A stretch of DNA of 58,838 nt from an uncultured Acidimicrobiia bacterium (GTDB taxonomy: Bacteria; Actinomycetota; Acidimicrobiia; Spongiisociales; Spongiisociaceae): positions 1 through 58,838 of the forward strand of contig CAZEZF010000006.1 in the NCBI GenBank assembly GCA_964516495.1. Direction: 5' to 3'. The number at the start of each line of letters is the position of its first letter. Positions within the stretch are counted from its first letter, which is position 1. The position numbers were made by a program, and so were the translations under genes. Under the pieces are notes generated by a model that made no database searches, was not told the origin of the DNA, and was given only the letters and a program-made list of their open reading frames with translations. This document shows, in pieces, positions 1 through 58,838 of the stretch.

Positions 1-55
1 GCGCTTGACGTGGCCTTTTCGAGGTCGGTGTGTCTGGGGCATGAAGAATTGGGGT
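1..55 (+). mobile_element. MITE-like element family 1, copy C1 (3-prime part only, cut by window start)
   Basis: Aligns with the last ~55 nt of the full-length copies at 29583-29785 and 38852-39054 (CTTGACGTGGCCTTTTCGAGGTCGGTGTGTCTGGGGCATGAAGAATTGGGG). Ends in the family terminal repeat, followed by TA. Confidence 0.8.
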
Positions 56-277
56 AAAACCGGGGATAATAGTTTGTTCGGGGGTGAGCGATCATGTTTA
101 CGCCGGCGACGAACCGCGCAACCCTCCGTTATGTCACCCCCAAGTGATATGTTCGCCATCAGATGAGTCACATAATCAAGGAAATCCGGGACCCGAGTCC
201 GGCTGCATGGGAGCGCTCGGCAGTGTCGATAACCGAAGCCAAATGAATAGCGTGAGACCCTCGTTGACAGATACTCC

Positions 278-3200
278 ATGTCTCTGGTGATCAATGTCGG
301 GTCGCATCCCGACCAGCTGGTGTCCGAGCTATGTGCGAAACTGGCTATGCCGCCGGACGATCCGTTTGTCCGGGAGGTGGTGGCGGTTCCGACGAAGGGG
401 ATCGAGCGCTGGCTAACCCAGCGGATCGCATCCCGAACGGGTCGGTCGGCCACCGGTGACGGTATCTGCGCCAACGTAGCCTTCCCTTCCCCGCGCCGAT
501 TGGTACGCCAGGCGATGGGCGCGGTTCCCGACCTGGCCGCCGCCTTGGACGCCTGGCACGGACCGCCTCTTATAGCCACTGTCTTATCGGTGGTGGATGA
601 CCACCTCGACGAAGAGTGGATGTGGTTGCTTGCCCGCTTCATCGAAGGCCCTGATGGGGCCGGTCCCGCCATTGTCGGCAACGGGCGGCGACTCCGGGCG
701 GCCCGCAAGATCGCCCGGCTATTCGGACGCTATGAACGGCGCCGCCCCGAGATGGTGCGCTCCTGGCTGGACGGTCGTGATCTCGCTCCCCACGGTCATG
801 TCCTGTCCGAGGCCAACGCATGGCAGCCACGTCTATGGAGGTTGGTCCGGGAACGTATCGGGGCGCCGGGATTGGTGGAGTTGATGCCGGAGGCCTTGCT
901 TCCCATCCGGGACGGCTCGGTCGATGTCAACCTGCCTGACCGGTTATTCGTGTACGGTCTGACCGCGGTCGATCCCCTTGATATTTCGGTGATCGAGGCG
1001 GTTGCCGCAAGACGTGACGTTGAGCTTTACCTGTTGCACGCATCGCCCGTTCTGTGGCGACAGACGCAGGCATTCTTGGCCGACCGACCTGTTAACAAGG
1101 AGATCCCGGCGAGGGCTGACGACCCGACCGCCGACCTGCCGGTCCATCCGCTGCTGCGTTCGTGGGCGCGGGAGAGTCGCGAACTCCAGTTCGTCATAGT
1201 CGGACGGAGCGCAACTTCGGGGACCTCGCCGGCCGCGCCGGAAGAATCGGCGCCCACCGGTCTGCTCGGCCTGCTTCAGCACGATATCCGTACCAACCGG
1301 GCCCCCGTCAGGGTCGAGGACCCATCCGGAGTGGGCGGCGTGACGGCCGACCGGTCCATACAGATACATGTGTGTTACGGTCCGAGGCGGCAGGTAGAGG
1401 TGCTTCGTGACGCCATCCTTCATGTGCTGGCCGCTGACCCCTCGTTGGAACCTCGTGACATCGTTATCATGACGCCGGACCTGGCCACCTTCGCTCCGCT
1501 CTTGGAGGCGGTGTTTCTCGGCCGACCTGATGACGCTACCCCGGACCTATCCGACGGCGCGACCGGCGCCATGCTCGCCCTTCCCGACCTACGCCTCCGG
1601 ATTGCGGATCGGGCGCCCGCCGTCACCAACCCGCTGGTCCGTTTCACGGCCACCGTGTTCGATCTTGTCGGGTCGAAACTGGAGGCGGGCGCGATTCGGG
1701 AGTTGGTTGCCATGCCGGTGGTAAGGCGACTGTTCGGGATAGACGAGGAGACGGCTGACGAACTCGCCCGTCTGATCGATGACATCAACGTCCGCTGGGG
1801 TCTTGACGCCGGCCACCGCGACGACTGGAGCGCGGGACCGATCAGCGATCACACCTGGATGAGAGGCCTGGATCGGGCATTGGCCGGCGTCTTCTACGCG
1901 GATAGTGAGGTCCGGGTGGTCGGCGACATCGCTCCACTTTCCGGTGTCGAAGGTACCGAGACGGAGGTAGCCGGGCTGCTCGCCCAGATTATCGACCGGA
2001 TCTCCACTGTGCGGTCGATCCTGGGCGAACCGCGACCGTTGTCGGAGTGGTCGTCGGCGGTTGCTGATGCGGTCCGCCTGCTGGCTGCTCCTGATCGGGA
2101 CAAACCGTGGCAGTGGAGTGAGCTGGAGCGTTTGCTGGCTCGAAGCTTTCCGCCCGGCGGGACGGACACCCCGGATCCCTTGATAGGGGTGGACGAGGCG
2201 CGCCTGATAGTCGATGACTGGTCGCGGGACGTTCCGAGCCCCCTGCATTTCCGGACCGGCGACATCACCGTCTGCACGCCGGCCCCCATGCGTTCGGTTC
2301 CATACCGGGTGGTGTGCCTGCTCGGAATGGATGACCAACGGTTTCCCCGCAGTAGCAGAACCGACGGTGACGATCTCTTGATCGACCATGAACTGATCGG
2401 GGATTCTGATCCGGGCGCCCAGGATCGCCAGCTTCTGCTGGATGCCCTGATGGCCGCCGGTGAATACCTGATCGTTACATACTCGGGCCGGGACGAGTTG
2501 ACCAACGCCGAGTTCCCTCCGTCTACACCGGTCGCCGAACTCCGGGATGTTGTCCACGAAATGGTAGGAGGCGAGCACTCCGACCGCTTCGTTACCTACC
2601 ATCCCCTCCAACCGTTCAGCGAGAGCAATTTCCGGCCCGGGGCGCTCAACCTTCCCGGTTCGTGGGGCTTCGATCCTGCGCAGTTTGACGGAGCGGCGGC
2701 AATCCAGCTACGCGGTTCACGGAGACCGGCCGCCCAAGTCTCTCTTCCACCTCCCGACGGTGAGATGTTCTCCGAGATCCGGCTGGACGATCTGCGGAGG
2801 TTCCTGGAGAATCCGGCCCGCGAGTTTCTCCGCCGACGGCTCGGATTCGTTATTCCGCCTCGCGGTGAGATTCCCGACGACAGCGTTCCCACGGTCCTCG
2901 ACCCCCTGAGTGAGTGGAAGGTCACCGACCGTCTCCTCTCGGGTTTGCTGAACGGACACTCCATCGAAACACTGGAAGCTCACGAAAGAGCCGACGATAC
3001 TCTCCCGTCCGGCTTCCTCGGCGCCGAGGCCCTGGCCAAGGCCAGACAGAGGGCGAGCGACCTGAGTGAGGCGGCTTCAGCGGAAGGCCATGACCCCAAC
3101 GGATTCCGGCAATATACCGCCACCGTCCGGATCGGCGGTCACAAGATCGACGGAACGGTAAGCGCTGATCCCGCCACCTCTCGGCTCGACATCGTCACAC

Positions 3201-6984: not shown

Positions 6985-8858
6985 CCCTGACCGACCGGAT
7001 CAAGGCGGCAACCGCCCATCCGGGGGTGGTGGTCGGCGTTTCCGGTCTGGCCGCATCATTCAACGACGAAGGCGTGCTGTCTCCTCTCGACGTTCACGCC
7101 GCGACCACGATGGCGCGGGTTATGGGAGAGACCGATGAATCAGTGGTACTGGCGGCTGCCTTGGCGGTGCGAGGCGCCAGGTTCGGGCATGTGTGCATCG
7201 ACCTCGAAAGCATGCGGGAATCAATGGTGGTCGAGGGACAGCCGCCCGAGGTGCTGGAGGGTTTGCCATGGCCGGATCCTCACGACTGGCCGGCGCGGGT
7301 CGCCGCCGGACCGATGGTTGGAGACGGCCGGGGTGAGGAACCGTTGGTGATGGTGGAGGGTCGTCTCTATATGGAACGTTACTACCGGTACGAGAACCGG
7401 CTGGTAGAGCTGCTTGGTGCCAGGGTCGCCACTCCGGAGATTCTTCTCGCTCCCGGGGTTCGAACGGCGCTGGACACCCTGTTTCCTCCGACGCCGGACA
7501 ACAGCCCGAATCGCCAGCTGACCGCGGCGGAGACCGCTCTACGAAGTCGGTTGACGGTGATAGCCGGTGGTCCCGGTACGGGTAAGACCTACACGGTGGT
7601 CAGGATGCTCGCGGCCCTGGCCCACCACCCGGATAGTTTTCCTCGGGTGGCTCTGTGCGCGCCGACCGGCAAGGCCGCGGCCCGCCTGAATGAAGTGGTC
7701 GAGGAATACGCCTCCGAAGCCTCCGATCCTCTGGTCCGGCGCCGGATGGAGAACCTGCAGATCAGCACCATCCATCGGCTTCTGGGGTGGGCGCGAGGGC
7801 GAGGTAGATTTCTTCATAACGAAGGCAACCTCCTCCCCCACGATATGGTGATAATCGACGAGTTGTCGATGGTGTCGCTACCGCTGGCCGTCAAGTTGAT
7901 CACCGCGATACGCTCCGACGCCAAGTTGGTGTTGGCGGGTGATCCCTTCCAACTCAAGTCCATCGAGGCGGGCACCGTTCTCGGCGATATTGTGGGTCCG
8001 GCGCAGGGAACCCCGTATCCGAGTCGACCGGCGGATGAACCAGGAACCGCGCCCCTGGCTAAGCGGGTGGTGACTTTGCAACGGGTGCATCGTTTTGACG
8101 AGCAGGGGCCGATAGCGGACTTCGCCGACGCGGTACGGACCGGCGAAGCCGACCAGGCGGTTCGACTGCTGCGAAGCGGCGCCCGATCGGTAGGTTGGGT
8201 CGAGGACCGGACCGGAGCGTCCTTCCGCCGATTGACGGAGCGGTTGACGGCGCACCGGGTTCGGTTGGTTGAGCTTGCATCCGAACCGGGAAACGAGGGA
8301 GCGGCGCTCGCCGCCTTGAACGAGTTGGCGGTGTTGTGCGCCCATCGGGAAGGTCCGGGGAGCGCCGACCAGTGGCGCCGGGACATCGAGACGGCTCTTG
8401 ACGAGAGGTTCCCAGGGCTTCGTTACGGGGGGGAGTGGTATCCGGGGCGGCCTCTTATGATCACGGCCAACGACTACACCCTTGATCTCTACAACGGGGA
8501 TATGGGTGTGGTAGTGCGCACCGCGGAAGGGCTAAGGGCGGTCTTCGAGCGGGGGGGATTACGCAGTTATCCGCCCGGTTACCTGGGGGATCATTCCACC
8601 GTCCACGCCCTGACCATCCATAAGAGCCAAGGGTCCCAGTTTGCCGAAGTGGTGGTCTCGCTTCCTTCCGAGGAATCCAGGTTGCTCACCCGGGAACTTC
8701 TGTATACGGCGGTCACCAGAGCCTCCCGCCGGGTCACGATCGTGGGGGAGTCGTCCGTGATCCGGGTGGCGGTGGATCGCTCGGTCCAGCGCGCCTCCGG
8801 GTTACGAGCGACGTTATGGGGTGAGGCCGCCGATCCGGTGATCGAGCGTCGGAAGTGA
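6981..8858 (+). CDS. recD: Exodeoxyribonuclease V alpha subunit (RecD, SF1B helicase)
   Basis: Walker A IAGGPGTGKTYTV, motif II VIIDELSMV, and C-terminal LTIHKSQGSQF and LLYTAVTRA. Start placed at ATG 6981, which overlaps the recB stop (ATGA); the ORF track allows 6909. Confidence 0.9.
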   Translation: MTLTDRIKAATAHPGVVVGVSGLAASFNDEGVLSPLDVHAATTMARVMGETDESVVLAAALAVRGARFGHVCIDLESMRESMVVEGQPPEVLEGLPWPDPHDWPARVAAGPMVGDGRGEEPLVMVEGRLYMERYYRYENRLVELLGARVATPEILLAPGVRTALDTLFPPTPDNSPNRQLTAAETALRSRLTVIAGGPGTGKTYTVVRMLAALAHHPDSFPRVALCAPTGKAAARLNEVVEEYASEASDPLVRRRMENLQISTIHRLLGWARGRGRFLHNEGNLLPHDMVIIDELSMVSLPLAVKLITAIRSDAKLVLAGDPFQLKSIEAGTVLGDIVGPAQGTPYPSRPADEPGTAPLAKRVVTLQRVHRFDEQGPIADFADAVRTGEADQAVRLLRSGARSVGWVEDRTGASFRRLTERLTAHRVRLVELASEPGNEGAALAALNELAVLCAHREGPGSADQWRRDIETALDERFPGLRYGGEWYPGRPLMITANDYTLDLYNGDMGVVVRTAEGLRAVFERGGLRSYPPGYLGDHSTVHALTIHKSQGSQFAEVVVSLPSEESRLLTRELLYTAVTRASRRVTIVGESSVIRVAVDRSVQRASGLRATLWGEAADPVIERRK

Positions 8859-10444
8859 TAGAACCGGAGAATCCGACGACCACCGCCCTCGCCAAGGCCA
8901 ACCGTCGGCGTTCTGACCTCGATGCCCTGCGGGGATTCGCGATGTTGTTGGGGATCGGACTCCATACGGCGCTGAGCTTCTTTCCGTCAGCGTGGTGGGT
9001 GCGGGACCGCACGGCCGACTTCGGGGGATTGTTCGACGAGTTCCTGTGGGCGGTTCATGGGTTCCGTATGCCGGTGTTCTTCTTGATGAGCGGCTTCTTC
9101 ACTGCTCTGTTGTGGCGCCGCCGCGGCCTGCCTGCCCTTCTGAGGCATCGGCTGCGAAGGGTTGGATTGCCATTGCTCATCGGGATGATCACGATCGTTC
9201 CGTTGACAGGTTTGGTAGGTAGCTGGGCCACCCGGTCTGCTTCGTCGCCTCAGGCAGCGGACGACGATGTTTTCGCCCACGTATTTCTCGGCGATGTTCA
9301 TGCGGTCGAGGAGATGCTCATCGAAGGGATCGATGTAAACCTGCGCAGCGAGCCGGGTGGTTGGACACTTCTTCATGCGGCGGCTCTGGTCGGCGACACC
9401 GAGATGATGGAGTTGCTGCTCTCCAATGGAGCTGAACCGGCGCCGGTCGCCGCCGCTTCGGAAGGGGAGACGCCGCTGGGCGTAGCCTTCCACTACGGTA
9501 ACGAAGAGGCCGCCGACCTGCTGGTGGCGTATCGGGGCGGAGATCCTTTGCCTGACGGCGTGGTCTGGTCGGACATTCCGGGCTGGGGTGACGGGGCCGC
9601 CGACATCGACGAAACCGATGAGCCTGCTATCGGCTCAGACGTCATGGACCTGGTAGCCCGATTCCATCACCTGTGGTTCCTGTGGTTCCTACTGTGGCTG
9701 GTAGCCGGGTTCGCGCTGGTGGCCCTGATAGTCGACCGCAGACCTCCTCGGGGCGGCGGGCCGGGCGCCGTGCAATCCGGGCTCAGGATGCGACCGGCGA
9801 CACCCGGTCGGATAATGTGGTCGATGGTTCCGCTGACCCTCGTCCCTCAGCTCTTTATGGGTCGGTTCGGTACATACCCGGTATTCGGGCCGGACACGTC
9901 CGACGGGTTCATCCCGGTTCCTCATATCCTCGCCTACTACGCCGCCTTCTTTACGTTCGGCGTTCTGATGTTCCGCCGGAAAGGTAGTAGCGGCGCCCTC
10001 CTGTCCGACACTATCGGAGGACGGTGGTGGCTGTATCTGCCGATAACAATGCTGGTGGTGTTTCCGGCGGGCCTCAGCTTCACCTTCGATCCGATCTGGT
10101 TTTCCTGGCCCGTGGCTTCGATGCTGCAGGTCGCCTACGCGTGGGGAATGTGCTTCGGGTTGATCGGGCTGTTCCGGGCGCTGCTTCGGAAGGAACGGCG
10201 GGGAGTCCGTTACTTATCCGATTCCTCTTACTGGCTGTACCTGATCCATCTACCGGTGGTGATAGCAGCACAGGTGATCGTCCGGGATTGGGACCTACCC
10301 GCAGAGGTCAAGTTCGTGGTTATATGCGTAGGCGTAACCGCCCTGCTGCTCGCCGGTTATCAGCTGTTCGTGCGGTACACCCCTATCGGGACGTTGCTGA
10401 ACGGCAAGAAGGTACGCTCCGGTCGGCCTGGATCAGACAGATGA
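8855..10444 (+). CDS. Acyltransferase-3 family membrane protein with an inserted ankyrin-repeat module
   Basis: N-terminus DALRGFAMLLGIGLHTALSF plus multiple hydrophobic helices is typical of the acyltransferase_3/OpgC-OafA family. A soluble insert carries about 3 ankyrin-like repeats (GWTLLHAAALVGDTEMMELLLSNGAEP; GETPLGVAFHYGNEEAADLLV). The GTG start overlaps the recD stop (GTGA at 8855-8858). Confidence 0.75.
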   Translation: MIEPENPTTTALAKANRRRSDLDALRGFAMLLGIGLHTALSFFPSAWWVRDRTADFGGLFDEFLWAVHGFRMPVFFLMSGFFTALLWRRRGLPALLRHRLRRVGLPLLIGMITIVPLTGLVGSWATRSASSPQAADDDVFAHVFLGDVHAVEEMLIEGIDVNLRSEPGGWTLLHAAALVGDTEMMELLLSNGAEPAPVAAASEGETPLGVAFHYGNEEAADLLVAYRGGDPLPDGVVWSDIPGWGDGAADIDETDEPAIGSDVMDLVARFHHLWFLWFLLWLVAGFALVALIVDRRPPRGGGPGAVQSGLRMRPATPGRIMWSMVPLTLVPQLFMGRFGTYPVFGPDTSDGFIPVPHILAYYAAFFTFGVLMFRRKGSSGALLSDTIGGRWWLYLPITMLVVFPAGLSFTFDPIWFSWPVASMLQVAYAWGMCFGLIGLFRALLRKERRGVRYLSDSSYWLYLIHLPVVIAAQVIVRDWDLPAEVKFVVICVGVTALLLAGYQLFVRYTPIGTLLNGKKVRSGRPGSDR

Positions 10445-10567: not shown

Positions 10568-10752
10568 ACCCCAATTTTTCATGCAGGGGTTTTGGATGGG
10601 TCCGAGAGAGATGAGATGAACCACATGACCTGGGAAGATAGCTGCGTGGTGGCCTCGCCTGGCCGGGGCGCCCCCATCACCCTGGGGTGAACGCCGGGAC
10701 GCCTCGTGAAAGTGGGCTTGACGGCTTCTTGTCAGCTACTTGAAGAAGAATT
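10568..10752 (+). mobile_element. MITE-like element family 1, copy C2 (3-prime end degenerate)
   Basis: Begins TA|ACCCCAATTTTTCATGCAGGGG and is colinear with the full-length copies up to GTGAAAGTGGGCTTGACGG. The 3-prime terminal repeat is reduced to GAAGAATT, without the GGGG end. Confidence 0.8.
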
Positions 10753-10784
10753 ACATCGCCGACAACATCGCGTAATCCTCATTG

Positions 10785-10978
10785 GTGAGGAGGCTGGCAG
10801 GCAAGAGCGCGTTGATCACCGGTGCGGGATCCGGAACAGGCGCGCCGCGACGGTCCGGGAGTTCGGACGGCTCGACATCGTCTATAACAACGCCGGGGTG
10901 GGTTCGGCCGGATCGGTCGCGGACGCCACCGAGGAGAACTGGGACCGGTGCTTCGATGTCAACGTAAAAGGGACCTGG
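10785..10978 (+). pseudogene. Short-chain dehydrogenase/reductase remnant (internal deletion, frame change, C-terminal truncation)
   Basis: One frame reads LAGKSALITGAGSGTG (Rossmann TGxxxGxG). A different frame, only about 15 codons later, reads FGRLDIVYNNAGV...FDVNVKGTW (NNAG motif). No catalytic YxxxK segment follows. In intact SDRs these motifs are in one frame and about 70 residues apart. Confidence 0.75.
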
Positions 10979-11082
10979 TCTCGCCGGGTCAGGAGATTGA
11001 AGCGCCGGGGAAGACCAGGAGGCGTGGGGGGCGATCCGTATGATCGTACGATCAAGAAGCCTATCAAGGAGTGAGGGCAGAC

Positions 11083-28222: not shown

Positions 28223-28239
28223 TAGTGTCCTAGTCTTTA

Positions 28240-28378
28240 CCCCCGATTTTTCATGCAGGGGTTCGGATGGGTAACCGAGAGAGATGAAATGAACTCTCTT
28301 ACCTGGGAAAATAGCCGCTTGACGGGCTTGACGTGGTCTTTTCGAGGTCGGTGTGACGGGGGCATGAAGAATTGGGGT
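28240..28378 (+). mobile_element. MITE-like element family 1, copy C3 (139-bp internal-deletion derivative)
   Basis: TA|CCCCCGATTTTTCATGCAGGGG ... GGGGCATGAAGAATTGGGGT|TA. Both termini are intact. The central ~64 bp present in the 203-bp copies is missing. Confidence 0.85.
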
Positions 28379-29582: not shown

Positions 29583-29785
29583 AGCCCCGATTTTTAATGC
29601 AGGGGTTTAGATGGGTAACCGAGAGAGATGAAATGAACTCTCTTACCTGGGACGATGGCTGTTTGACGGCCTCTACTGGCCGGGTATCACCTTTCACCCG
29701 AAGGTGAACGCCGGGACGCCCCATGAAAATGGACTTGACATGGCCTTTTCGGGTTCGGTGTGTCCGGGGCATGAAGAATCCGGGC
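29583..29785 (+). mobile_element. MITE-like element family 1, copy C4 (full length, 203 bp)
   Basis: GCCCCGATTTTTAATGCAGGGG ... CCGGGGCATGAAGAATCCGGGC|TA. Near-identical to 38852-39054 and to the reverse complement of 58695-58838. Confidence 0.9.
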
Positions 29786-31030: not shown

Positions 31031-31163
31031 CGGGATCGGATGTTACCTGTTCCCGGATCGGGCAGGGCGCCTGATCGGTATCCTCGATACGGCGCGGTTG
31101 CCGTCGAGTAGGCATTCGATCCGGTAGCGTGTCCTGACAACGTCCAACCAGGGAGAGTCCAAG

Positions 31164-32235: not shown

Positions 32236-32610
32236 AGGCGCCTCTCACGATCAGGTGAGAGCCTCGAACGCCTTCGACCGACGACCGGAGTGGTAGTTTG
32301 ACGGTTGATCCGCTGCGTTGGGAGCAAATACGCGAGCAGGCCAGGATCATTGCAGGCGCCCGGTCGGTTGATGACCGCGCCGTAGTAGATGCGCTTGTCG
32401 AGGTCTCATCCTCCCTTTACGAGATGCAGTCTATGGAGAGGTCGTCGTCGCTCGGTCCACGAGCCGGCGATGCCCTGGGTTAGGTGATCGACGCTGTCAC
32501 CACCATCAGCGGGATGCTTGTGGAGCGGTTCGCAGCGCCTGCCGTAGACATGGCCACGGCGGCATGTCCGCCGGTTCGTCGGATAGGGGAAACGCAGTTG
32601 TCGTTGTAGA

Positions 32611-32692
32611 AACCTATCTTTCCAGGTCATGTAGTTCATTTCATCTCTCTCAGTTACCCATTCAAACAAACCCCTGCGTTCAAAATCGGGGT
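32611..32692 (-). mobile_element. MITE-like element family 1, copy C7 (5-prime fragment of about 82 bp)
   Basis: The reverse complement reads TA|ACCCCGATTTTGAACGCAGGGGTTTG...GGGTAACTGAGAGAGATGAAATGAACTACATGACCTGGAAAGATAGG. Similarity to the family then stops. Confidence 0.75.
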
Positions 32693-32706
32693 TAAAGGAC
32701 GGGCGC

Positions 32707-34095
32707 TTACCGTGAAACCGGACCGACGAACTCTCCGTAACCGGGTTCCGCGGTCACAACCCCATTCCGCGCCACCACTTTGCCTCGCACCGTAGTCAAT
32801 ACAGGGACACCTTTGAGAGTCCGGCCTTCATAAGGGGAGTAGCCGGCCTTGGACAACACCTCGTCCCTGGTAACGGTGTGCTCCGCCTCATAGTCGATGA
32901 CCACCAGATCGGCGTCCGATCCGGCTTCGATGGCGCCTTTCCTCGGATACAGGCCGAACCTTCGGGCCGGATTGTGCGCCCCGATTCGCACCACATCGTC
33001 GAGAGAAATCAGGCCGTTATGTGACGCGTCGAGCAGTTTCATCAGATAATGCTGCAGCTGGGGGGTCCCGGTGGGTGTCGCCCACATGTTCTCCCATCCC
33101 GGCAGCTTCTCCTCCAGCGTGTGGGGGGCGTGGTCGGTACCGAGAATATCGATAGTACCGTCGGCGATGCCTTCCCACAGGGCCTCCCGCCACTCCGGCT
33201 TGAGGCACCTTCCGATCGCCAACGGTCCCATGTGGGCGATCTCGTCCCAGTCGCTCAGGAACAACCCGAACGCGTTCACCTCGGATGTCACATCCTGTCC
33301 ATCCGCCTTGGCCCGGCGGATCAACTCCACCGTCCGATCCGACATCATGTGCAGAACATGGAGAGGTCCACCGACTCCCCGGTTCAGTTCGATCAAGGTT
33401 GCCACCCCGCTGTTCCACACGGTTCCGTCATACATCCATTCGGCTTTCGAATAGGACTCCGGGTCCATCCGGGACGACTCGAAGTGGGCGTGTTCGATCA
33501 CACCCAGTACCGCCTGATCGTTGGGGTGGACCATGAGCGGCCGGCCGGTGTCCGACACGGCTTCCATGATGCGGAGAAGCTCGTCGTGCTTATGGACACC
33601 GAGACCGGGCATATGCGGATAGCTGCGCGCGGCGTCTACCACCATGAACACCTTGAAGCCCAGCGCGCCCATCTCCGCCAGTTCGGCCACCGCCTCGATG
33701 TTGGTAGGCGCCGGGTTATGGTTGAAGTCGACTACGGCGCGCCGGGATTGACTCTCGATGATCTCCCGGTAGTGGTCGGGATGGGTGGTCGGAGGGTTCA
33801 CGTTGGGCATACCGATGGTCATGGTCACCCCACCCACCGCGGCGCCGCGGGTGGCGCTGGTGATGTCTTCCTTGTGGGTGAAACCCGGATCCCTATGGTG
33901 GGAGTGGGTATCGATCAACCCGGGAATGACCAGCTTCCCCGCAGCGTCGATTATCTCTCCTTCCCGGATCGGCTCATCGGTTGTCGCCTCTATCCCGACT
34001 ATCCGCTCGCCGGCGATGAAAATGTCGGTTGCCGGGATGAATCCGTCTTCTGTCCATACCGCGCCTCCACGGATGGTGAGATCAATACCCGGCAT
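32707..34095 (-). CDS. Cyclic amidohydrolase (dihydropyrimidinase/hydantoinase/allantoinase-like)
   Basis: VIPGLIDTHSHHRDPGFTHKEDITSATRGAAVGGVTM (HxH plus downstream signature) and ILGTDHAPH. ATG 34095 is preceded by GGAG; the ORF track allows a TTG at 34107. Confidence 0.85.
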   Translation of the reverse strand: MPGIDLTIRGGAVWTEDGFIPATDIFIAGERIVGIEATTDEPIREGEIIDAAGKLVIPGLIDTHSHHRDPGFTHKEDITSATRGAAVGGVTMTIGMPNVNPPTTHPDHYREIIESQSRRAVVDFNHNPAPTNIEAVAELAEMGALGFKVFMVVDAARSYPHMPGLGVHKHDELLRIMEAVSDTGRPLMVHPNDQAVLGVIEHAHFESSRMDPESYSKAEWMYDGTVWNSGVATLIELNRGVGGPLHVLHMMSDRTVELIRRAKADGQDVTSEVNAFGLFLSDWDEIAHMGPLAIGRCLKPEWREALWEGIADGTIDILGTDHAPHTLEEKLPGWENMWATPTGTPQLQHYLMKLLDASHNGLISLDDVVRIGAHNPARRFGLYPRKGAIEAGSDADLVVIDYEAEHTVTRDEVLSKAGYSPYEGRTLKGVPVLTTVRGKVVARNGVVTAEPGYGEFVGPVSR

Positions 34096-34131
34096 AGGAG
34101 TCTCCAAGCACTCGCTTGGCGGAGAAGTCTA

Positions 34132-34330
34132 GCCCTGATTCTTCATTCCCCAGACACCCGATGTAGAAAAGGCCACGTCAAGCCCACTTTTGTGGGGCGT
34201 CTCGCCCTTCATTTCTGGGTGATGGGCGCCCCGCCCAGGCGAGGCCGCCAAGCAACTATTTTCCAGGTCAGAGAGTTCATTTGCATTTCTCTCGGTTACC
34301 CATACAAACCCCTGCATTAAAAATTGGGGC
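34132..34330 (-). mobile_element. MITE-like element family 1, copy C5 (full length, 199 bp)
   Basis: The reverse complement reads TA|GCCCCAATTTTTAATGCAGGGG ... TGGGGAATGAAGAATCAGGGC|TA. Its first nucleotide plus the flanking TA form the TAG stop of the gene at 34330-36702. Confidence 0.88.
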
Positions 34331-36702
34331 TAATCCGAGGTCTTTCGATCACCCGGTTCCCCGGAATCGAGGTAATGCTCGGCTTGGCGGATCAAATCGA
34401 GCAGCCGGTGGGGGGTAATCGGGATCTCGTTGATCTCGATAGGCAACGGGCGGAGTGCGTCGACGATGGCGTTGGCGATCGCGCCGGGCGCCGAGGCGGT
34501 CGAGCCTTCGCCGGCGCCCTTGATACCGGGCGGATTCAGCGGAGTCGGATGGGGCCGATGTATGACGGTGATGTCCGGTGTCTCGGCGAGGGTAGGGAGG
34601 AGGTAATCCAGGAAGGTGCCCGATAACAGCTGGCCCTCCCGGTCGTGATGTACTTCTTCGAGGAGCGCGTTGCCGATCCCATGGACGACGCCTCCGTGCT
34701 GCTGCCCATCCACCACGACCGGGTTGAGGATCGTACCGCAATCGTCGACCACCAGGTAGTCGGTTACCCGGACCATTCCCGTTTCCCGATCAACCAGGAC
34801 CGAGGCGATGTGGGTTCCGGACCCGAAGGTGACCGACGGTGGTGTGTATCTATCTTCGGCCGACAGTTTCGATCCGGTTTCCTCGAGTGCGGAATCACCT
34901 TGAGCGGCGCCCGCCAACTCGCGATAGGTCAAAGCCAGTCCGGGAACGCCCTTCGGATGGACCTTTCCTCCGGATAGGACCAGATCGGCCGGGTGGCACT
35001 CCAGCAGATCGGCCGCGATTTTCTTCAACATGTCCCGCATCCTGGTGGAGGCCTTCCAGACGGCGGTCCCCGCGGTCACCGCGCTCCGGCTCCCGAACGT
35101 TCCGCCGCCCTCAGGCAGGAGGATGGTGTCCCCGAATCTGGTCTCGATACGGTCATAGGGCAGGTCGAGGACCTCCCCGGCCACCTGGGCCAGGGTCGTT
35201 GCGTGGCTCTGGCCGTGGGGATTCGACCCGCAGGTGAGGGTCACGCTCCCGTCATGGTCGATCTCGATGCGGGCTACCTCGTGCGGTCCGAGTCCGGTGG
35301 CTTCGACATGGGCCGAGATTCCGATTCCGGGAAGCAAACCGTCGGGACGCGGCTTTTGAGCGGTTCGCCGTTTCTCCTTGTAACCGAATGAGTCCAGGGC
35401 GCAACGAAGCTGTTCCGGATAGTCTCCCGAATCGTAGACCATCGGGTTACCGTCCCGGTACAGCATGCCCATGTCACGGGGCATCTCCTCGGCGGGAATC
35501 AGGTTGATCATGCGAAGGCCGGCCGGGTCCATCCCCAGGTCACGGGCCGCCATGTCCACCAGTCGGTCCAGTACGAAGGTCGCCTCGGGCCGTCCCGCGC
35601 CGCGTACCGGAGTGACCCGGTTCTTGTTGGTGAGCACGCAAAGACCCTCGACATCGAAGTGGTCGAGGGCGAACTGTCCCCTGGCATGCGATGCGACGTT
35701 GAACGGTAAGGTGAGCCCGAAGGGATTGGTGGAACCACAATCCTGAACGATCCGCATTTTCATGGCGCGAAACCGGCCGGATCGGTCGTAGGCCAGGACG
35801 GCGTCGATCACCTGGTCGCGGGAGTGCCGGGCATTTCCCAGGTTCTCCCGCCGATCCTCCAGCCATCGGACCGGTCGCCGCAGGCGTAAGGCAGCCAGAG
35901 CGGTTAGCAGTTCCTCCGGGTAGATACCGCCTCCGAAGCTTCCTCCCATGTCGGGCGCAACGACCCGTATGGCCCGCTCGTCGTAATGCAGGAATTCGGC
36001 CAGATAGGACCTGAGGACGTGAGGGATCTGGGTGGTGGACCATACGGTCAATAGTTCGGCGCCGGTGGGGGGGATAGCGATCACTCCACGGGTTTCGATG
36101 GGCGACCCGACCGAACGGGCGATCCGGAAGCGGCCCCCGACCGAACGTTGCGAAAGGCCGATCTCCTTCTCCGGTTCACCGATAGTGATGCGGAACGATG
36201 ACTGGACGTTGTTCGGGTGGTCGGCCAAGACCGGTTCAGAGTCGATATCCATCGCTTCGAAGGGATCGACTATCGGGACGAGGTTTTCGTACTCCACATC
36301 GACCAACTCGGCGGCGTCCTCGGCGGCCTCCCGGCTTGACGCTATGACCATGGCGACCGGTTCACCGACGCGGTTCACTCGTTTTCCGGCGAGAATAGGC
36401 TCCTGGTATCGACCCAGGTCTACCTCGTGGCGGGCTACGAAAGCGGGCGTCAGCGTGTAGAACTGGCGGGTAATGGCGTTTTGCGCCCCGTCGAGATCGG
36501 ATGCGGTCAACACGGCGACGACGCCGTCTGCCCGCTGCGCTGCTCGGGTATTCACCGCAGTGATACGAGCCCGGGCAAAGGGACTCCGGATGGCGACCGC
36601 GTCATGAAGATCGGGAACCCGGAGATCGGCGATGAACCGGGCCTCTCCGCGGAGTAGACGATGGTCCTCCCGACGGGGGAGAGGGTGGCCGATCAGCTTC
36701 AT
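34330..36702 (-). CDS. Xanthine dehydrogenase family molybdopterin-binding large subunit (L4)
   Basis: HPLPRREDHRLLRGEARF, DMGGSFGGG, VTPVRGAGRPE, GIKGAGEGS. No adjacent FAD or Fe-S subunit genes. Confidence 0.88.
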   Translation of the reverse strand: MKLIGHPLPRREDHRLLRGEARFIADLRVPDLHDAVAIRSPFARARITAVNTRAAQRADGVVAVLTASDLDGAQNAITRQFYTLTPAFVARHEVDLGRYQEPILAGKRVNRVGEPVAMVIASSREAAEDAAELVDVEYENLVPIVDPFEAMDIDSEPVLADHPNNVQSSFRITIGEPEKEIGLSQRSVGGRFRIARSVGSPIETRGVIAIPPTGAELLTVWSTTQIPHVLRSYLAEFLHYDERAIRVVAPDMGGSFGGGIYPEELLTALAALRLRRPVRWLEDRRENLGNARHSRDQVIDAVLAYDRSGRFRAMKMRIVQDCGSTNPFGLTLPFNVASHARGQFALDHFDVEGLCVLTNKNRVTPVRGAGRPEATFVLDRLVDMAARDLGMDPAGLRMINLIPAEEMPRDMGMLYRDGNPMVYDSGDYPEQLRCALDSFGYKEKRRTAQKPRPDGLLPGIGISAHVEATGLGPHEVARIEIDHDGSVTLTCGSNPHGQSHATTLAQVAGEVLDLPYDRIETRFGDTILLPEGGGTFGSRSAVTAGTAVWKASTRMRDMLKKIAADLLECHPADLVLSGGKVHPKGVPGLALTYRELAGAAQGDSALEETGSKLSAEDRYTPPSVTFGSGTHIASVLVDRETGMVRVTDYLVVDDCGTILNPVVVDGQQHGGVVHGIGNALLEEVHHDREGQLLSGTFLDYLLPTLAETPDITVIHRPHPTPLNPPGIKGAGEGSTASAPGAIANAIVDALRPLPIEINEIPITPHRLLDLIRQAEHYLDSGEPGDRKTSD

Positions 36703-36857
36703 GTCGGGAGGGACGGCACCACGAACTCGGGGATGTCAGGGTCGACACGGGACCCGGACGCAGGAGGGTGCTGAAGGATGTCCAGCGGGTCAGACAGTCG
36801 CCAAGACCACCCTGGTCGATGCGTTGGTAGCCAACACATCTTCGTCTTCATCTTCGC

Positions 36858-36879
36858 TCGTCTAATATTAAATAGACGA
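36858..36879. promoter_or_regulatory. Palindrome inside an AT-rich intergenic island (candidate operator/promoter region)
   Basis: TCGTCTA-atattaaa-TAGACGA (7-bp arms, 8-nt spacer). It lies within the only strongly AT-rich stretch of the window (about 36855-36925), 155-220 bp upstream of the L4 start codon. Confidence 0.35.
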
Positions 36880-36936
36880 CGCTTACACATCGAAATATTT
36901 TTCTATTACATAAATCGGTGAGGTAGCCGGACGGCT

Positions 36937-37335
36937 TCATCTATCGTCGATCCGGGCTACGGCTTCCATCTCGATCATCTGCCGACGGTCGAAGAGCCGT
37001 TCGATCTGCACCAGCGTGGAGGCGGGCCATACGTCACCCCACCGCTCGCGCCATACCGGCTCGATCTCTGCCCAACGGGATATGTCGGTTACATAGGTTC
37101 GGATCTGGACGACATCGTTGAGGGTGGCGTCGGAAGCCGCCAGGATCAGGCTCATGTTGTCCAGGACCTGGCGCGCCTGGGCGGCCATATCGCCTATCCC
37201 CACGATCGTTCCGTCTGCGGTTCGTGAGGTCAGGCCGCTCACATAGAGAGTACGAGCCGACGACTCGGCCACGATTACCTGGGAGAAACCATCTATCGGA
37301 ACGTGATAATCCGAGCTGTTGATCGCCTTTCTCAC
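36937..37335 (-). CDS. RidA/YjgF family protein
   Basis: YVSGLTSRTADGTIVGIGDMAAQARQVLDNMSLIL...VQIRTYVTD...PASTLVQIERL has YjgF/RidA-type architecture. 132 aa, GTG start. Confidence 0.8.
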   Translation of the reverse strand: MRKAINSSDYHVPIDGFSQVIVAESSARTLYVSGLTSRTADGTIVGIGDMAAQARQVLDNMSLILAASDATLNDVVQIRTYVTDISRWAEIEPVWRERWGDVWPASTLVQIERLFDRRQMIEMEAVARIDDR

Positions 37336-37530
37336 GAGTTCGACTCCTCGATCCGATTGCTTGTCTTTTGCGGGACGCGCCTACCTCGAATCATCGGTGG
37401 TCCGGGCCGAGGGAGTCGCACGTCCTATCGCAGGGTAGCGTGGTCAGTCCGCCACCCTCATTCCCGGTTTGTTAGATTGAGCGGCACAGCCTGACAAACG
37501 ACAGGCCCTACACCCAGGGAGGCGCACATT

Positions 37531-38619
37531 ATGAACCGATTATCCACCAAGACGACTTTGATCGGCGCATTGCTGACGTTGGCGCTCGTGGCGTCCGCAT
37601 GCCAGGGGGACGAGTCCCCCGATGTTGCATCCGGCGGCTGTGCTGTTGATGGAGGTCTCAGGGAGACTACCTTCCTGCTGCCGTTCCCATTCGCAACCCC
37701 GTTCTATTCGATCTTCGTTGCCGAATCCCTCGGCTATTACGAAGCGGAAGGCCTTCAGGTCAATATCGAGTTTGCCGACGGCAGCGCGTCGGTTGTGCAG
37801 CAGGTGGTGGCCAACAATGTGGAGTTCGGTCTTTCCGATCCGGGCCCGATCGTTGACGCCGAAGCGCTTGGTGAGGATCTGGCGGTGGTCTTTGTTCTGC
37901 AGAACCGCCTGATCTACGCGCTCGTGACCCCGGCTGGTTCTCCTTATACCACCATCGAGTCCTTGGCCGGCCACACTTTGGGTGTATCCGAGGCGACCGC
38001 CGGTGAGGTTCCCTTCTTCGAGAGCCTCCTGGCGTCCAGGGGTATCGACCCGGAGACCGACGTTGAGATCATCGAGACCGGCGCCGGCGGTACTACTGCG
38101 GCGGCCTTCCAGAGCGACCGTATCTCCGCCTACTTCTCCGACTACTTCAACGTCATCGAACTCGGTTTCGAGATCGAATTGAACGAGTTCGACCTCGGGG
38201 AGTTCGGACTGCTCAACGGGGCCAGCATCGTGGTCCAGCAATCGTTGATCGACGAGGATCCGGACCTCATCGTCTGTCTCCTGAGGCCGATAGCCCGGGC
38301 AGCCGAGTACACGCACGCCGATCCGAGGGCCGGTATAGATGCGATAGCCGCTTCCCGACCCGACCAGATATCGGATCCGGATGGCTTTGACAGGCTCGCG
38401 GTCGACGAGAGCATCAAGCGCCAACTGCCTTACGAAGACTCTGGGAACATGATCGGGTGGAACCGCCCTGCTTCATGGGAGGCCTACATCGACCTCCTGG
38501 CTTCGAGAGGGACTCTGGGCGGGGATTTCGATCCCGAATCCGTATACACCAACGAGTTCATCGAGGTAATAAACGACTTCGACAAACAGGCGGAGCGCGA
38601 CGCCGCTACCTCCGCGTAG
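37531..38619 (+). CDS. ABC transporter substrate-binding lipoprotein (NMT1/THI5-like)
   Basis: Signal peptide with lipobox LTLALVASAC. Similar to the SBP at 16089-17162 (for example GLGYYEEEGL vs SLGYYEAEGL). AGGGAGG lies upstream of the ATG. Confidence 0.8.
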   Translation: MNRLSTKTTLIGALLTLALVASACQGDESPDVASGGCAVDGGLRETTFLLPFPFATPFYSIFVAESLGYYEAEGLQVNIEFADGSASVVQQVVANNVEFGLSDPGPIVDAEALGEDLAVVFVLQNRLIYALVTPAGSPYTTIESLAGHTLGVSEATAGEVPFFESLLASRGIDPETDVEIIETGAGGTTAAAFQSDRISAYFSDYFNVIELGFEIELNEFDLGEFGLLNGASIVVQQSLIDEDPDLIVCLLRPIARAAEYTHADPRAGIDAIAASRPDQISDPDGFDRLAVDESIKRQLPYEDSGNMIGWNRPASWEAYIDLLASRGTLGGDFDPESVYTNEFIEVINDFDKQAERDAATSA

Positions 38620-38646
38620 CAAGGTCAAACTTCGCCAGTCCCCAGG

Positions 38647-38675
38647 AAGGGGGCCGCCGGATCGGTGGCCCCCTT
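38647..38675 (+). terminator. GC-rich hairpin downstream of the SBP gene (terminator-like, no clear U tract)
   Basis: AAGGGGGCC-gccggatcggt-GGCCCCCTT gives 9 perfect base pairs, extendable with inner pairs. It starts 28 nt after the stop codon and is followed by CGTATTG. Confidence 0.45.
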
Positions 38676-38851
38676 CGTATTGAACTGGTCGTGGTGACGG
38701 AGCGGGGGATTCACTGTGTCCGGTTCAACTCGGGTCTTTGATGTAATTGCCGGCTTCGTTCAATGACCAATCGTGGTCGGCGCTGATTACCTGTCCCGAG
38801 GCCCGCGAAAAAATCGCGAAAACAACCCTCCCGGTTTTGTTGACTCCCTTA

Positions 38852-39054
38852 GCCCCAATTTTTAACGCAGGGGTTTGAATCGGTAACCGAGCGAGATGCA
38901 AAGAACTCTCTGACCTGGGACGATAGCTGTTTGGTGGCCTCTACTGGCCGGGGTATTACCTTTCATCCGAAGGTGAACGCCGGGGACGCCCCATGAAAGT
39001 GGACTTGACGCGCCCTTTCAAGGTTCGGTGTGTCTGGGGCAAGTGAATCCGGGC
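38852..39054 (+). mobile_element. MITE-like element family 1, copy C6 (full length, 203 bp)
   Basis: TA|GCCCCAATTTTTAACGCAGGGG ... TCTGGGGCAAGTGAATCCGGGC|TA. Confidence 0.9.
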
Positions 39055-39056
39055 TA

Positions 39057-39130
39057 GGAGGGTGCTGAAAAGGACACCAGGGAGTTCACCATCGGACATC
39101 GGCCATGCCGGGGGTTTCTCAGCACCCTCC
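39057..39130. repeat. Short inverted-repeat element family 2, copy B (74 bp)
   Basis: GGAGGGTGCTGAAAA ... TTTCTCAGCACCCTCC. Its reverse complement aligns with 28123-28222. Its left TA (39055-56) is the same TA that flanks MITE copy C6. Confidence 0.75.
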
Positions 39131-39168
39131 TGGAGAAAACCGAACAGAGACTCAAAGATACTGATGGC

Positions 39169-39963
39169 TTACTGGAGGCGTTGCATCCTCGTGGTGGCCG
39201 ACCAGAACACGATCTTACGTTCCGCATAGGCGATCAAGGAGTACAACATAAAGGCCAGGGCCGAGACGACCACCAGAAATGCGAACAGCCGGGCGGTTTC
39301 CAAGCGGGCCGCCGCGAACTCGATCTGGAACCCCAGGCCGTCTTGCGCGCCTGCGAACTCGCCGATCACGGCCCCGATGGCCGCGAATGCCATGGCGGTC
39401 CGGAGGGAGGCGAAGACGTAGGGAGCGGAACGAGGAAGCTTCAGCCTCCTGAAGGTCTGCCAGCGGGAAGCCCGGATCGACGACATCAGCTCGAGTTCCT
39501 CCTCCTCCATCGAACCGAGCCCGGTCACGGTGTTGACGAACACCGGGAAGAAACAGATCACCGCGGCGATCAGGATCTTGGGCATGGCTCCGAACCCGAA
39601 CCAGATCACGAACAGCGGGGCGATTGCGATCTTAGGTGTCGAGTTGAGGGCGATGGTATAGGGGATCACTATTCGCCGTACGGTGATGAACTCCGCTACC
39701 AGCGAGCCGATTATTACCGCCATCCCCGACCCCAGCAGGAAGCCGAAGATGATCTCGTAGAAGGTGATCCAGGTGTCCTGCCAGTACGCCAGATCACCGA
39801 AGAGGTTGGTCAGTACAAACCAGAGGGAAGCAAGGATCGACGTAGGCGCCGGAAGGACGAGCGGGTTCACTCCGCCGCTGCGCGATACATACTCCCACAC
39901 GCCCATTATGAGGATGAGCGAGGCCAGGAAGGTGACGGCTGCCTTGACGCTGTCGTTCATCAT
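39169..39963 (-). CDS. ABC transporter permease (NitT/TauT-type)
   Basis: Six-helix hydrophobic protein with SIRASRWQTFRRLKLP, matching the loop of the permease at 15059-15916. ATGA overlap with the upstream ATPase gene. Confidence 0.85.
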   Translation of the reverse strand: MMNDSVKAAVTFLASLILIMGVWEYVSRSGGVNPLVLPAPTSILASLWFVLTNLFGDLAYWQDTWITFYEIIFGFLLGSGMAVIIGSLVAEFITVRRIVIPYTIALNSTPKIAIAPLFVIWFGFGAMPKILIAAVICFFPVFVNTVTGLGSMEEEELELMSSIRASRWQTFRRLKLPRSAPYVFASLRTAMAFAAIGAVIGEFAGAQDGLGFQIEFAAARLETARLFAFLVVVSALAFMLYSLIAYAERKIVFWSATTRMQRLQ

Positions 39964-44216: not shown

Positions 44217-45206
44217 ATGCTTCACAATATGAGCACGCCCAAGACGGCGCCCCCGACTGTGATCGATGCCAGAACGGCCGCCGGCGCGGTAGCGGCGACC
44301 GGCGGAGTGTCGGAGATACTCGTTTTCGGGTCCGTTGCGAGAGGGGAAGCAGGACCGGACAGCGACATAGACCTGGTGGCCATCCATGACGACCTCGACT
44401 ACTCGGCCCGCAGCGCCCGATCGGCGCGATTGGGAAGCATCGCCGCCGAAGCGACCGGCCATCGGGTGTTCGTGTATGTGACCGATTGGCCGGAGTGGAT
44501 CCATCGCAGCAGTGAAGTAACCAGTTCGCTCGAACGGGCCATCAGCGCCGAGGCGGTGAGTCTCTACCATCGGGATGCGAGCGGGGTGCGCTGGAGGAAG
44601 GAGATCGGGATGCCCGCCACCGACCGCGACGAAGGCCTCGTCCGCCTTGACAACGCCCTGCGCTCCCTGCTCGCGGTCCAGGGCCACTTGGAAATGAGTC
44701 CCGGGGAAAGGAACGCCTTGGTGGACCGCGATCCCGGTTACTACCTCTTTGCATTGAGGGGTCGGATGGGTACGCTGTGCGCCCATGCTCACATGGCGAT
44801 GGAGACCAGCCTCAAGGCACTCATCCACATAGGGGGAACGCACCCTGCCCGTACCCACGACCTCGGCCGGCTGCTGGGGTCCCTTCCGGTCGGTGAGAGG
44901 GACAGCCTCAGGGAGCATTTCATGGATGTGACTCCCGCAACGGCATCGAGGTGGAGAGAGGCCGGGGCTTACGAGTCTTCGGAGCGGCCTCTCGATGAGA
45001 TGGTGATCCACGCCTACCACATGGTCCGAACCTGCATCAAGCTATCGCGTCATGCAGCCAACCGGTTTGCCGACTCCGAGGCAGCTCGTGTGATGGGAAA
45101 GGTATCCGCCGAAATCGAACGCAAGGTTGATAGTTGGAACCTGGAAGGCGAGGATCCGTACAAGGTGCTCGGTCAATCCCCTCCGCCCGAACTCGGCCCG
45201 CGTTAG
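44217..45206 (+). CDS. Fused nucleotidyltransferase-HEPN domain protein
   Basis: N-terminal NTase motif LVFGSVARGEAGPDSDIDLVAI. C-terminal helical HEPN-like region with METSLKALIHIGGTHPARTHDLGRLL. Confidence 0.75.
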   Translation: MLHNMSTPKTAPPTVIDARTAAGAVAATGGVSEILVFGSVARGEAGPDSDIDLVAIHDDLDYSARSARSARLGSIAAEATGHRVFVYVTDWPEWIHRSSEVTSSLERAISAEAVSLYHRDASGVRWRKEIGMPATDRDEGLVRLDNALRSLLAVQGHLEMSPGERNALVDRDPGYYLFALRGRMGTLCAHAHMAMETSLKALIHIGGTHPARTHDLGRLLGSLPVGERDSLREHFMDVTPATASRWREAGAYESSERPLDEMVIHAYHMVRTCIKLSRHAANRFADSEAARVMGKVSAEIERKVDSWNLEGEDPYKVLGQSPPPELGPR

Positions 45207-46618: not shown

Positions 46619-46651
46619 GGGGAGAGCCGGTTTCGGTGTCCGGTTCTCCCC
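46619..46651 (+). terminator. Strong hairpin downstream of the M24 gene (terminator-like)
   Basis: GGGGAGAGCCGG-tttcggtgt-CCGGTTCTCCCC gives 12 bp with one G-U pair, followed by TTGAT. It starts 30 nt after the stop and ends just before MITE copy C8. Confidence 0.5.
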
Positions 46652-46655
46652 TTGA

Positions 46656-46852
46656 TCCCGGATTCCCATGTACGGGGTTCGCGCGGGCGACGGAGGAGTC
46701 AGAGGAACTTCCGGACCTGGGAAACGGCTGCTCGGTTGTCCCGTCTAGGCGGTGCGCCTATCACCCGAAGGTGAACGTCAAGACGCCCCACGATGCTGCG
46801 CTTGGCGTGGCTTTTGCTACATCGGTGGGTCCGGGGCATGAAGAATCAGAGT
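46656..46852 (+). mobile_element. MITE-like element family 1, copy C8 (divergent, 197 bp)
   Basis: TCCCGGATTCCCATGTACGGGG ... CCGGGGCATGAAGAATCAGAGT|TA. Colinear with the family (GACCTGGGA, CACCCGAAGGTGAACG, GACGCCCCAC) but heavily substituted. Confidence 0.75.
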
Positions 46853-56373: not shown

Positions 56374-56387
56374 GGGAGTCTATAGAG

Positions 56388-57554: not shown

Positions 57555-58638
57555 CCGCGCCGCGCTGGTGATGGCGCCGGGGAGGGTTGAGGTCACCGAC
57601 ATCGACATCAGCCCTCCCCGGGAGGGCGAGGTGCTGCTGAGAATGGAAGCGGCCGGGGTCTGCCGCACCGACTACAAGGTTTCCAAGGGGCTGCAATCCA
57701 CGAGGACGCCTAGATATCCCATGCTGCTGGGTCATGAAGGCGCCGGGGTGGTGGAGCAGGTGGGTCGCGGAGTGAACCATCTCAAGGAAGGGGACCGGGT
57801 GGCGGTAGGTTGCCGTGTCCCGTGCGGCGCCTGCGTGATGTGCCGGCGCAACGATCCCCGGCGGTGTAACTCCTCTGCGCCACGCGCTCCGATCGTCTCG
57901 ATTTCGTCCGACGGTTCCCAGGTTGAGGTACCGATCGGCTTGGGGATGTACGCGGAGCGAATCGGAGTCGACGCCGGGGCCGTTTTCAAAGTCAGCGACG
58001 CCATGCCCATGACATCCGCCGCGCTTCTAGGCTGTGCGGTCATGACCGGAACCGGCGCCGTGTTCTACACCGCCAAGGTCTGGCCGGGCGCTACCACCGC
58101 GGTAATCGGTTGCGGTGGAATCGGTCTCTCGACGGTGCAGGGCGCTCGTATGGCCAACGCTTCCAAGGTCATTGCGGTTGATATTTCCGACCGCAAACTC
58201 CGATGGGCGATGGAGATGGGCGCCACCCATACGGTCAACTCGTCGGAGCAGAACCCGGTGGAGGCGGTGCGAGCCATAACCGGCGGCTACGGGGTGGATT
58301 TCTCGTTCGAAGCGGTCGGGATGGGCGCCACCGTAGAACAGGCCCTCCGGATGCTGTCATACGGCGGCGTGGCGACCATGATCGGGGTGCCCCCTGCCGG
58401 GTCGGTAGCCGACCTCGATCCTGTAGCGTTTTTCCGCAACACGTCGACTTTGATGACGACCCACGGAGGGGAGGGAATACCGGCCCAGGACTTTCCGGTG
58501 CTGGATTCCCTCTACCAATCGGGCAGCCTCGACCTCGACTCCATGGTCACCCATACCATCCCGCTTTCCGACATGGAGAAAGGCTTTGAGAACCTGGAGA
58601 CCGGTTCGGCTCTCCGAACGGTTGTCGTACCCGACTGA
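57547..58638 (+). CDS. Zinc-dependent alcohol dehydrogenase family protein
   Basis: GVCRTDY, GHEGAGVVEQVG, CGACVMCRRNDPRRC, and VIGCGGIGLS. Overlaps the M24 gene by 8 nt. Confidence 0.88.
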   Translation: MHSRAALVMAPGRVEVTDIDISPPREGEVLLRMEAAGVCRTDYKVSKGLQSTRTPRYPMLLGHEGAGVVEQVGRGVNHLKEGDRVAVGCRVPCGACVMCRRNDPRRCNSSAPRAPIVSISSDGSQVEVPIGLGMYAERIGVDAGAVFKVSDAMPMTSAALLGCAVMTGTGAVFYTAKVWPGATTAVIGCGGIGLSTVQGARMANASKVIAVDISDRKLRWAMEMGATHTVNSSEQNPVEAVRAITGGYGVDFSFEAVGMGATVEQALRMLSYGGVATMIGVPPAGSVADLDPVAFFRNTSTLMTTHGGEGIPAQDFPVLDSLYQSGSLDLDSMVTHTIPLSDMEKGFENLETGSALRTVVVPD

Positions 58639-58694
58639 CCTCGCTGATCTGCTAGCCGGCGCCGGTCATCTGAACTCAAGGTCGAGTCGCTTTA

Positions 58695-58838
58695 ACCCGG
58701 ATTCTTCATGCCCCGGACACACCGAACCTGAAAAGGCCATGTCAAGTCCACTTTCACGGGGCGTCCCGGCGTTCACCTTCGGGTGAAAGGTAATACCCCG
58801 GCCAGTAGAGGCCACCAAACAGCTATCGTCCCAGGTCA
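58695..58838 (-). mobile_element. MITE-like element family 1, copy C9 (3-prime about 144 nt, cut by window end)
   Basis: The reverse complement is near-identical to positions ~60-203 of the copies at 29583 and 38852 (TGACCTGGGACGATAGCTGTTTGGTGGCCTCTACTGG...GGGGCATGAAGAATCCGGGT|TA). Confidence 0.88.

Follow-up and report, generated by a model that had tools for sequence, protein, structure and literature searches.

RUP, a miniature inverted-repeat transposable element (MITE) of Streptococcus pneumoniae, is small and non-coding, carries terminal inverted repeats (TIRs), duplicates a TA dinucleotide on insertion and is thought to be mobilised by the insertion sequence (IS) IS630-Spn1 (PMC2229807). 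The Correia or NEMIS elements of Neisseria have TIRs with a terminal TA, also duplicate TA, and vary in length through internal deletion; their ends, too, were defined by comparing filled and empty sites between strains (PMC2229807). Here we describe a family of repeats of about 200 bp that resembles both in these respects. It is dispersed through contig CAZEZF010000006.1 (assembly GCA_964516495.1) of an uncultured Acidimicrobiia bacterium of the Spongiisociaceae, the entire 58,838 bp of which was analysed and is referred to below as the window, and it recurs in the genomes of related organisms.

Like RUP, the element is mostly intergenic, is present as many diverged copies and is proposed to be mobilised in trans (PMC2229807). 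The likeness is one of description, and relatedness in sequence is not expected. RUP is 107 bp long, resides in a Firmicute and has TIRs resembling those of a known IS, whereas the element described here is about 200 bp long, belongs to an uncultured member of the Acidimicrobiia and has no known partner IS. Correia elements differ in their length (107-155 bp), in their phylum and in carrying an IHF site and promoter or RNase III features, signals of a kind not detected in the element. The presumed partners, ISs of the IS630/Tc1-mariner group, share the TA target, the 2-bp duplication and short TIRs, but they are at least 1.1-1.3 kb in length and encode a DDE/D transposase. Nothing of this kind is present in the window, where none of the 50 non-overlapping open reading frames (ORFs) of at least 80 amino acids contains a transposase Pfam domain, as a preliminary description of this DNA had already proposed.

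We consider it very likely that the repeats constitute a family of MITEs of about 200 bp, non-coding, non-autonomous and TA-inserting, that are moved by a transposase encoded elsewhere. As such the element is of an ordinary kind among bacterial mobile elements, and the family has not been described before; we found no publication describing MITEs in the Acidimicrobiia lineage, including the Acidimicrobiia of sponges. An nhmmer profile built from five full copies and run on the window returned exactly nine copies (E-values from 1e-63 to 1e-9) and none besides, reproducing the nine positions and strands first proposed, and a general repeat search of the window recovered the family independently. 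Pairwise identity among the window copies ranges from 52% to 93%, and the element measures 197-204 bp across these copies and those of the relatives. Both ends read TA-RCCCYRATTYTTMA, a pattern matched with no more than one mismatch at all 13 visible termini in the window and at 8 of 8 termini in the relatives; the symmetric TIRs span 14-16 nt, and the 5' flanks beyond the TA vary (cTA, tTA, gTA). The TA itself abuts five of the seven visible 5' ends, the exceptions being CA at 29582 and GA at 46654, and six of the seven visible 3' ends, or all seven if copy 1-55 has lost one T of GGGGT-TA. These counts agree with the preliminary description, and at a TA dinucleotide frequency of 0.026 in the window the chance of five or more out of seven is 2e-7. 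No consistent ORF exists in the element: six-frame translation meets stops in nearly all frames, no frame is open across copies, and a six-frame chimera of the copies' open stretches had no match among 5.8 billion proteins. Only the 200-bp unit is repeated among the window copies, with unrelated sequences on either side. The family thus combines a size below about 300 bp, lack of coding capacity, TIRs, a target-site duplication and dispersed copies with unrelated flanks, the features by which MITEs are defined.

The target-site duplication was established by comparison with three complete or near-complete genomes whose proteins are 78-84% identical to those of the window: ERZ21861969 ctg21620c (4.14 Mb), ERZ25084387 ctg36569l (4.08 Mb) and ERZ25069711 ctg17310_46x_c (4.02 Mb), all from ENA. 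Two syntenic 22-kb loci were compared from each, and about 190 kb of relevant genomes was read in total. The stretches that correspond to the site of copy 34132-34330 are L003, from the 4.08-Mb relative, L009 and L010. A check set in advance, that empty orthologous sites should contain a single TA, was borne out by four filled/empty pairs, each with a single TA at the empty site. The first is filled in L009 (...GGATCGAACCG-TA-204 bp-TA-AGTGAAACC, with GAACCG as the bases immediately to the left) and empty in L003 and L010 (...GGATCGAACCGTAAGTGAAACC, or in shorter form GAACCGTAAGTGAAACC). The second is filled in L011 (...GGGGGT-TA-204 bp-TA-ACAGGAG), with a single TA in L004 and L006. The third is filled in L004 (...GCTGT-TA-(G...C)-TA-AGCGGACC, the right flank starting AGCGG) and empty in L011 (GCTGTTAAGCGGACC, shorter form GCTGTTAAGCGG). 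Because the bases beside the TA are not repeated in the L004/L011 pair, the duplication is exactly 2 bp, TA. Duplications of 3 bp (TAR) or of 4 bp were also considered; they fit some sites and are contradicted by the L004/L011 and L009 pairs.

The fourth pair involves a window copy. Copy 34132-34330 is inserted in the stop-codon TA of a xanthine-dehydrogenase-family gene (34330-36702, minus strand), so that the stop codon now consists of TA plus the element's first G, with the second TA at 34130-34131. The window has TA-(G...C)-TAGACTT here, against TAAACTT or TAGACTT in L003, L009 and L010, and 3' of the site the relatives have the same 34-nt spacer followed by the ATG of the next gene. At copies 38852 and 32692, divergence of the intergenic DNA is too great for an empty-site alignment with the relatives.

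In the relatives, the family is represented by four copies at other loci, each flanked by TA, which we call subfamily B to distinguish them from the window copies (subfamily A). Identity among them is 81-88%, falling to about 60% against the window copies. Their TIRs are cleaner, with GCCCCGATTATTCATGG against GCCCTGATTATTCAGG at the two ends (15/16 matching). The variable columns of the subfamily-B alignment are concentrated in the interior (59/151, against 6/54 in the terminal 27 nt of both ends; p=8e-5), the pattern that would follow if mobilisation now reached only those copies whose ends are intact. Two further relatives, with 74-75% RecD identity, had no copy in 35 kb.

These comparisons also date the family. 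The identity of about 60% between subfamilies A and B is near the orthologous third-codon-position identity (63%), which fits a family older than the species split, and the presence in sister genomes of a subfamily this distant from the window copies upholds the long residence first suggested from the spread of copy identities. The younger window copies (87-93% identical) postdate the split from the relatives. The 4.14-Mb and 4.02-Mb genomes, which are 97.5-98% identical in two genes compared, differ by three insertions in 44 kb, and the family has therefore moved on a within-species timescale.

Taken together, this suggests a history in which the element would be cut and pasted into a TA dinucleotide, which becomes duplicated, and in which a transposase from elsewhere in the genome would recognise the conserved termini and move any copy with intact ends. 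The family would predate the split of the window organism and its sister species, each of which has its own subfamily, and its activity has continued since the split, as the within-species insertion differences in the relatives and the spread of copy ages in the window show. Older copies would then decay through truncation, internal deletion and recombination between copies.

Several points weigh against this reading. No autonomous element and no IS630-family transposase with matching termini was found in the roughly 190 kb read. TA duplication is not unique to IS630/Tc1-mariner elements, and some subgroups of the IS5 family duplicate 2-4 bp including TA. The recently inserted copies still differ from one another by 12-19%; either many diverged copies can still be mobilised, or allele exchange or precise loss accounts for part of the polymorphism. 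Lastly, the L006 copy's recD/acyltransferase site offers no clean empty site, as the relatives have a different gene junction there.

The enzyme that acts in trans is presumed, from the TA duplication alone, to be a DDE transposase of the IS630/Tc1-mariner type. The insertion into TA with a duplication of exactly 2 bp in the L004/L011 pair is what this group would be expected to leave, and the precedent for tying a TA duplication to an IS630-type enzyme is RUP with IS630-Spn1 and, more loosely, the Correia elements (PMC2229807). The same kind of MITE could instead be moved by a transposase outside the IS630/Tc1-mariner group, either from an IS5-family subgroup or from an undescribed enzyme family. 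We regard this as rather unlikely, though it is the best of the alternatives: the TA duplication is the sole tie of the element to IS630, the partner has not been identified, and neither the TIR nor the whole element has a match in plasmid or phage-derived collections. Specifically, blastn of both subfamilies against plasmids gave no match, and scanning viral contigs for the TIR yielded 39 single matches, none of them a true copy by nhmmer. Against it, a strict 2-bp TA duplication combined with TIRs is the classical signature of IS630/Tc1-mariner elements and also underlies the assignment of RUP to IS630-Spn1 (PMC2229807). For an IS5-like enzyme in particular, nothing past the TA is duplicated in the L004/L011 pair, whereas 3-4 bp is typical of most IS5-like elements. 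An origin from IS200/IS605 elements was rejected; it is contradicted by the TIRs and the TA duplication, and there is no fixed 5' tetra- or pentanucleotide.

That the element goes beyond being a parasite, with constraint extending past the TIRs, we think improbable, although two features may point in that direction. Internal blocks are common to subfamilies A and B (GACCWGG, GGTGAACG, GGTGAAC and GTTGA/GGTTGA), and the four recently inserted copies of subfamily B each measure exactly 204 bp, with essentially no indels even though substitutions amount to 12-19%, a uniformity that hints at a length constraint. Such constraint could come from sites, subterminal or internal, that an unusual transposase binds, or else from a host-level role, with the element serving as a protein-binding or small-RNA module between genes in symbiont-like Acidimicrobiia.

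Another alternative would make the unit a gene for a structured non-coding RNA, or a cis-regulatory RNA, that has multiplied in the genome, with the TA flanks as part of the unit. Single copies do fold somewhat better than shuffled sequences (z=-2.5 on the plus strand, -2.0 on the minus strand), and the short blocks GACCWGG, GGTGAAC and GTTGA shared by the subfamilies, together with the fixed length of subfamily B, would suit an RNA. When RNAalifold folds A and B together, however, only 11 pairs remain (-3.3 kcal/mol; covariation term +0.22), without support from covariation, and subfamily B alone has 3 of 69 pairs compensated (covariation term +0.56). The copies occur in either orientation with respect to the adjacent genes, and the empty sites place the TA in the target, not in the unit. 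There was also no Rfam match, either in the whole window at the gathering threshold or on the copies within 28000-39300 at E<=1, and we judge an RNA origin very improbable. Promoter-like and terminator-like signals in the copies were not above shuffle expectation, and an outward promoter based on the conserved TTGAC block was discarded, as no -10 partner was found. A relationship to repetitive extragenic palindromes or the mosaic elements built from them (REP/BIME), also raised at the outset, does not fit a TIR-bounded unit of about 200 bp with a duplicated TA, since those are palindromes of 20-40 bp. We give next to no probability to a local duplication, segmental or tandem-type, or to an assembly artefact restricted to this contig, readings that the copies in other genomes refute: five copies do cluster between 28 and 39 kb, but what is repeated there is the element without its flanks, related copies occur at four other loci in three independently assembled genomes, and an independent Logan assembly of reads reproduces the junctions.

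On copy number, the evidence is indirect. The window contig terminates within element copies on both ends, and Logan short-read contigs start or stop inside copies at window positions 34252 and 38882 and at L005:1-25. That contigs break inside copies implies that the genome holds many of them. In the window there are 9 copies per 59 kb, as opposed to 4 per about 110 kb in the relatives; a high copy number and density can thus be inferred, while extrapolation from the window density would be speculative. Beyond these genomes, the 5' TIR pattern gave, among the matches listed for a genome collection, one chance match in a metagenome-assembled genome (MAG) of the Bacteroidia, and the 5' TIR and conserved internal block had no match in JGI metagenomes.

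For the Acidimicrobiia, the result is a well-documented MITE family whose ends are exactly defined, whose TA duplication is proven and whose insertions are polymorphic within a species. The understanding of how such elements work is unchanged by it. In practical terms, the element fragments short-read assemblies of these genomes, whose contigs terminate in copies, it marks rearrangement and deletion junctions, and its presence/absence sites could act as strain markers.

Table 1. Copies of the element in the window (subfamily A) and in the related genomes (subfamily B). A hyphen in a terminal sequence marks the boundary between the element and its flank.
Feature	Coordinates	Strand	Ends and flanks	Basis
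3'-terminal 55 bp of copy	1..55	+	cut by contig start; end ...CATGAAGAATTGGGG(T)-TA	nhmmer model positions 149-199, E=1e-9; 93% identical to 3' part of copy 28240
Copy without 3' terminus	10568..10752	+	intact 5' end cTA-ACCCCAATTTTTCA	nhmmer E=3.5e-50, model 2-196
Internally deleted copy (about 60 bp lost)	28240..28378	+	both termini: tTA-CCCCCGATT ... TTGGGGT-TAg	two nhmmer segments, model positions 2-88 and 148-198
Full-length copy, 202 bp	29584..29785	+	CA at 5' side (degenerate TA), TA at 3' side	best nhmmer match, E=1.3e-63
5' half copy	32611..32692	-	tTA-ACCCCGATTTTGAA..., truncated after about 80 bp	nhmmer model 2-76, E=4e-15
Full-length copy, 199 bp	34132..34330	-		nhmmer E=2e-59
Full-length copy, 203 bp	38852..39054	+	tTA-GCCCCAATT...CCGGGC-TA	nhmmer E=2.3e-60
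Full-length copy, 197 bp	46656..46852	+	flanks GA and TA	nhmmer E=3.5e-50
3' 144 bp of copy	58695..58838	-	cut by contig end; TA flank at 58693-58694	nhmmer model 60-201, E=5e-44
Subfamily-B copy, 204 bp	L004:370-573			
Subfamily-B copy, 204 bp	L006:11872-12075			
Subfamily-B copy, 204 bp	L009:9753-9956			
Subfamily-B copy, 204 bp	L011:14959-15162			

A closer comparison of the window copies (Table 1) modifies some of the details first reported for them. Copies 29583, 38852 and 58695 had been called near-identical; this holds for local stretches (95-99%), but overall they are only 87-93% identical. The first of these most likely begins with the G at 29584 and not at 29583. Copy 46656, located between M24 peptidase and epimerase genes, is indeed strongly diverged, with 52-80% identity to the other copies, the lowest of any full-length one. 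In the relatives this site holds 47 nt that weakly resemble both termini (TCCGGG..., ...GTGACTCCGGGG...AGT-TA); nhmmer gives no support to this resemblance, and the 47 nt may tentatively be taken as a remnant of this copy, the oldest in the window. Directly upstream of the same copy, 3' of the M24 peptidase gene, is a GC-rich hairpin (AGGGGAGAGCCGG...CCGGTTCTCCCCT; window 46625-46655). It is conserved in the window and at the same site in all relatives (L003, L009 and L010) and is probably a terminator.

The copies had also been described as intergenic, and all of them lie between genes, with the qualification that 10568-10752 adjoins a 5'-truncated dehydrogenase fragment. This adh_short fragment (in the region 10568-11074) lacks its N-terminal third and covers only Pfam profile positions 65-112. 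Synteny with the relatives, which have PIN/FitA genes after the acyltransferase instead, stops at this copy, and 10568-11074 resembles a junction produced at a copy by deletion or rearrangement. Copy 58695-58838 has a composite sequence: 74 nt of it match copy 38852 (38911-38984) at 99% identity, and 106 nt match copy 29583 (29682-29787) at 95%. Such a mosaic suggests that copies have exchanged sequence by recombination or gene conversion.

The window also contains a second, unrelated small TIR element, in copies of about 104 bp (28120-28225) and 76 bp (39054-39133) with termini TA-GGAGGGTGCTGAGAAAC, its TIR giving 3 matches where 0.03 are expected. The larger lies 14 bp upstream of copy 28240, and a Logan contig stops inside it at window 28186. 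The smaller has a TA in common with the 3' end of copy 38852-39054. Two nucleotidyltransferase/HEPN modules (28702-29531, minus strand, and 44217-45206, plus strand), one split into two genes and one fused, both adjoin element copies and are absent at the syntenic loci of the three relatives.

The rest of the window, with a G+C content of 61.7%, has the gene content of an ordinary chromosomal region by domain search of its ORFs, and the nearest named matches of its proteins are in Acidimicrobiia MAGs and Candidatus Spongiisocius, at about 69% identity. It encodes recC, recB and recD and four large subunits of the xanthine dehydrogenase family, with ABC transporters and amidohydrolases among its other genes. 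The acyltransferase (Acyl_transf_3) at 8855-10444 has ankyrin repeats inserted mid-protein, a layout shared by every relative read; such repeats are frequently noted in bacteria associated with hosts, sponge symbionts among them. The luciferase-like monooxygenase at 31164-32235 is broken up into two ORFs, of 277 and 106 amino acids, that overlap; its orthologues in the relatives are intact (357-384 amino acids). A frameshifted pseudogene or a sequencing error is the probable explanation. In the 4.08-Mb relative, about 515 bp of extra sequence (L003:13800-14330) separates the amidohydrolase and luciferase-like genes, against a gap of 16 bp in the other two relatives.

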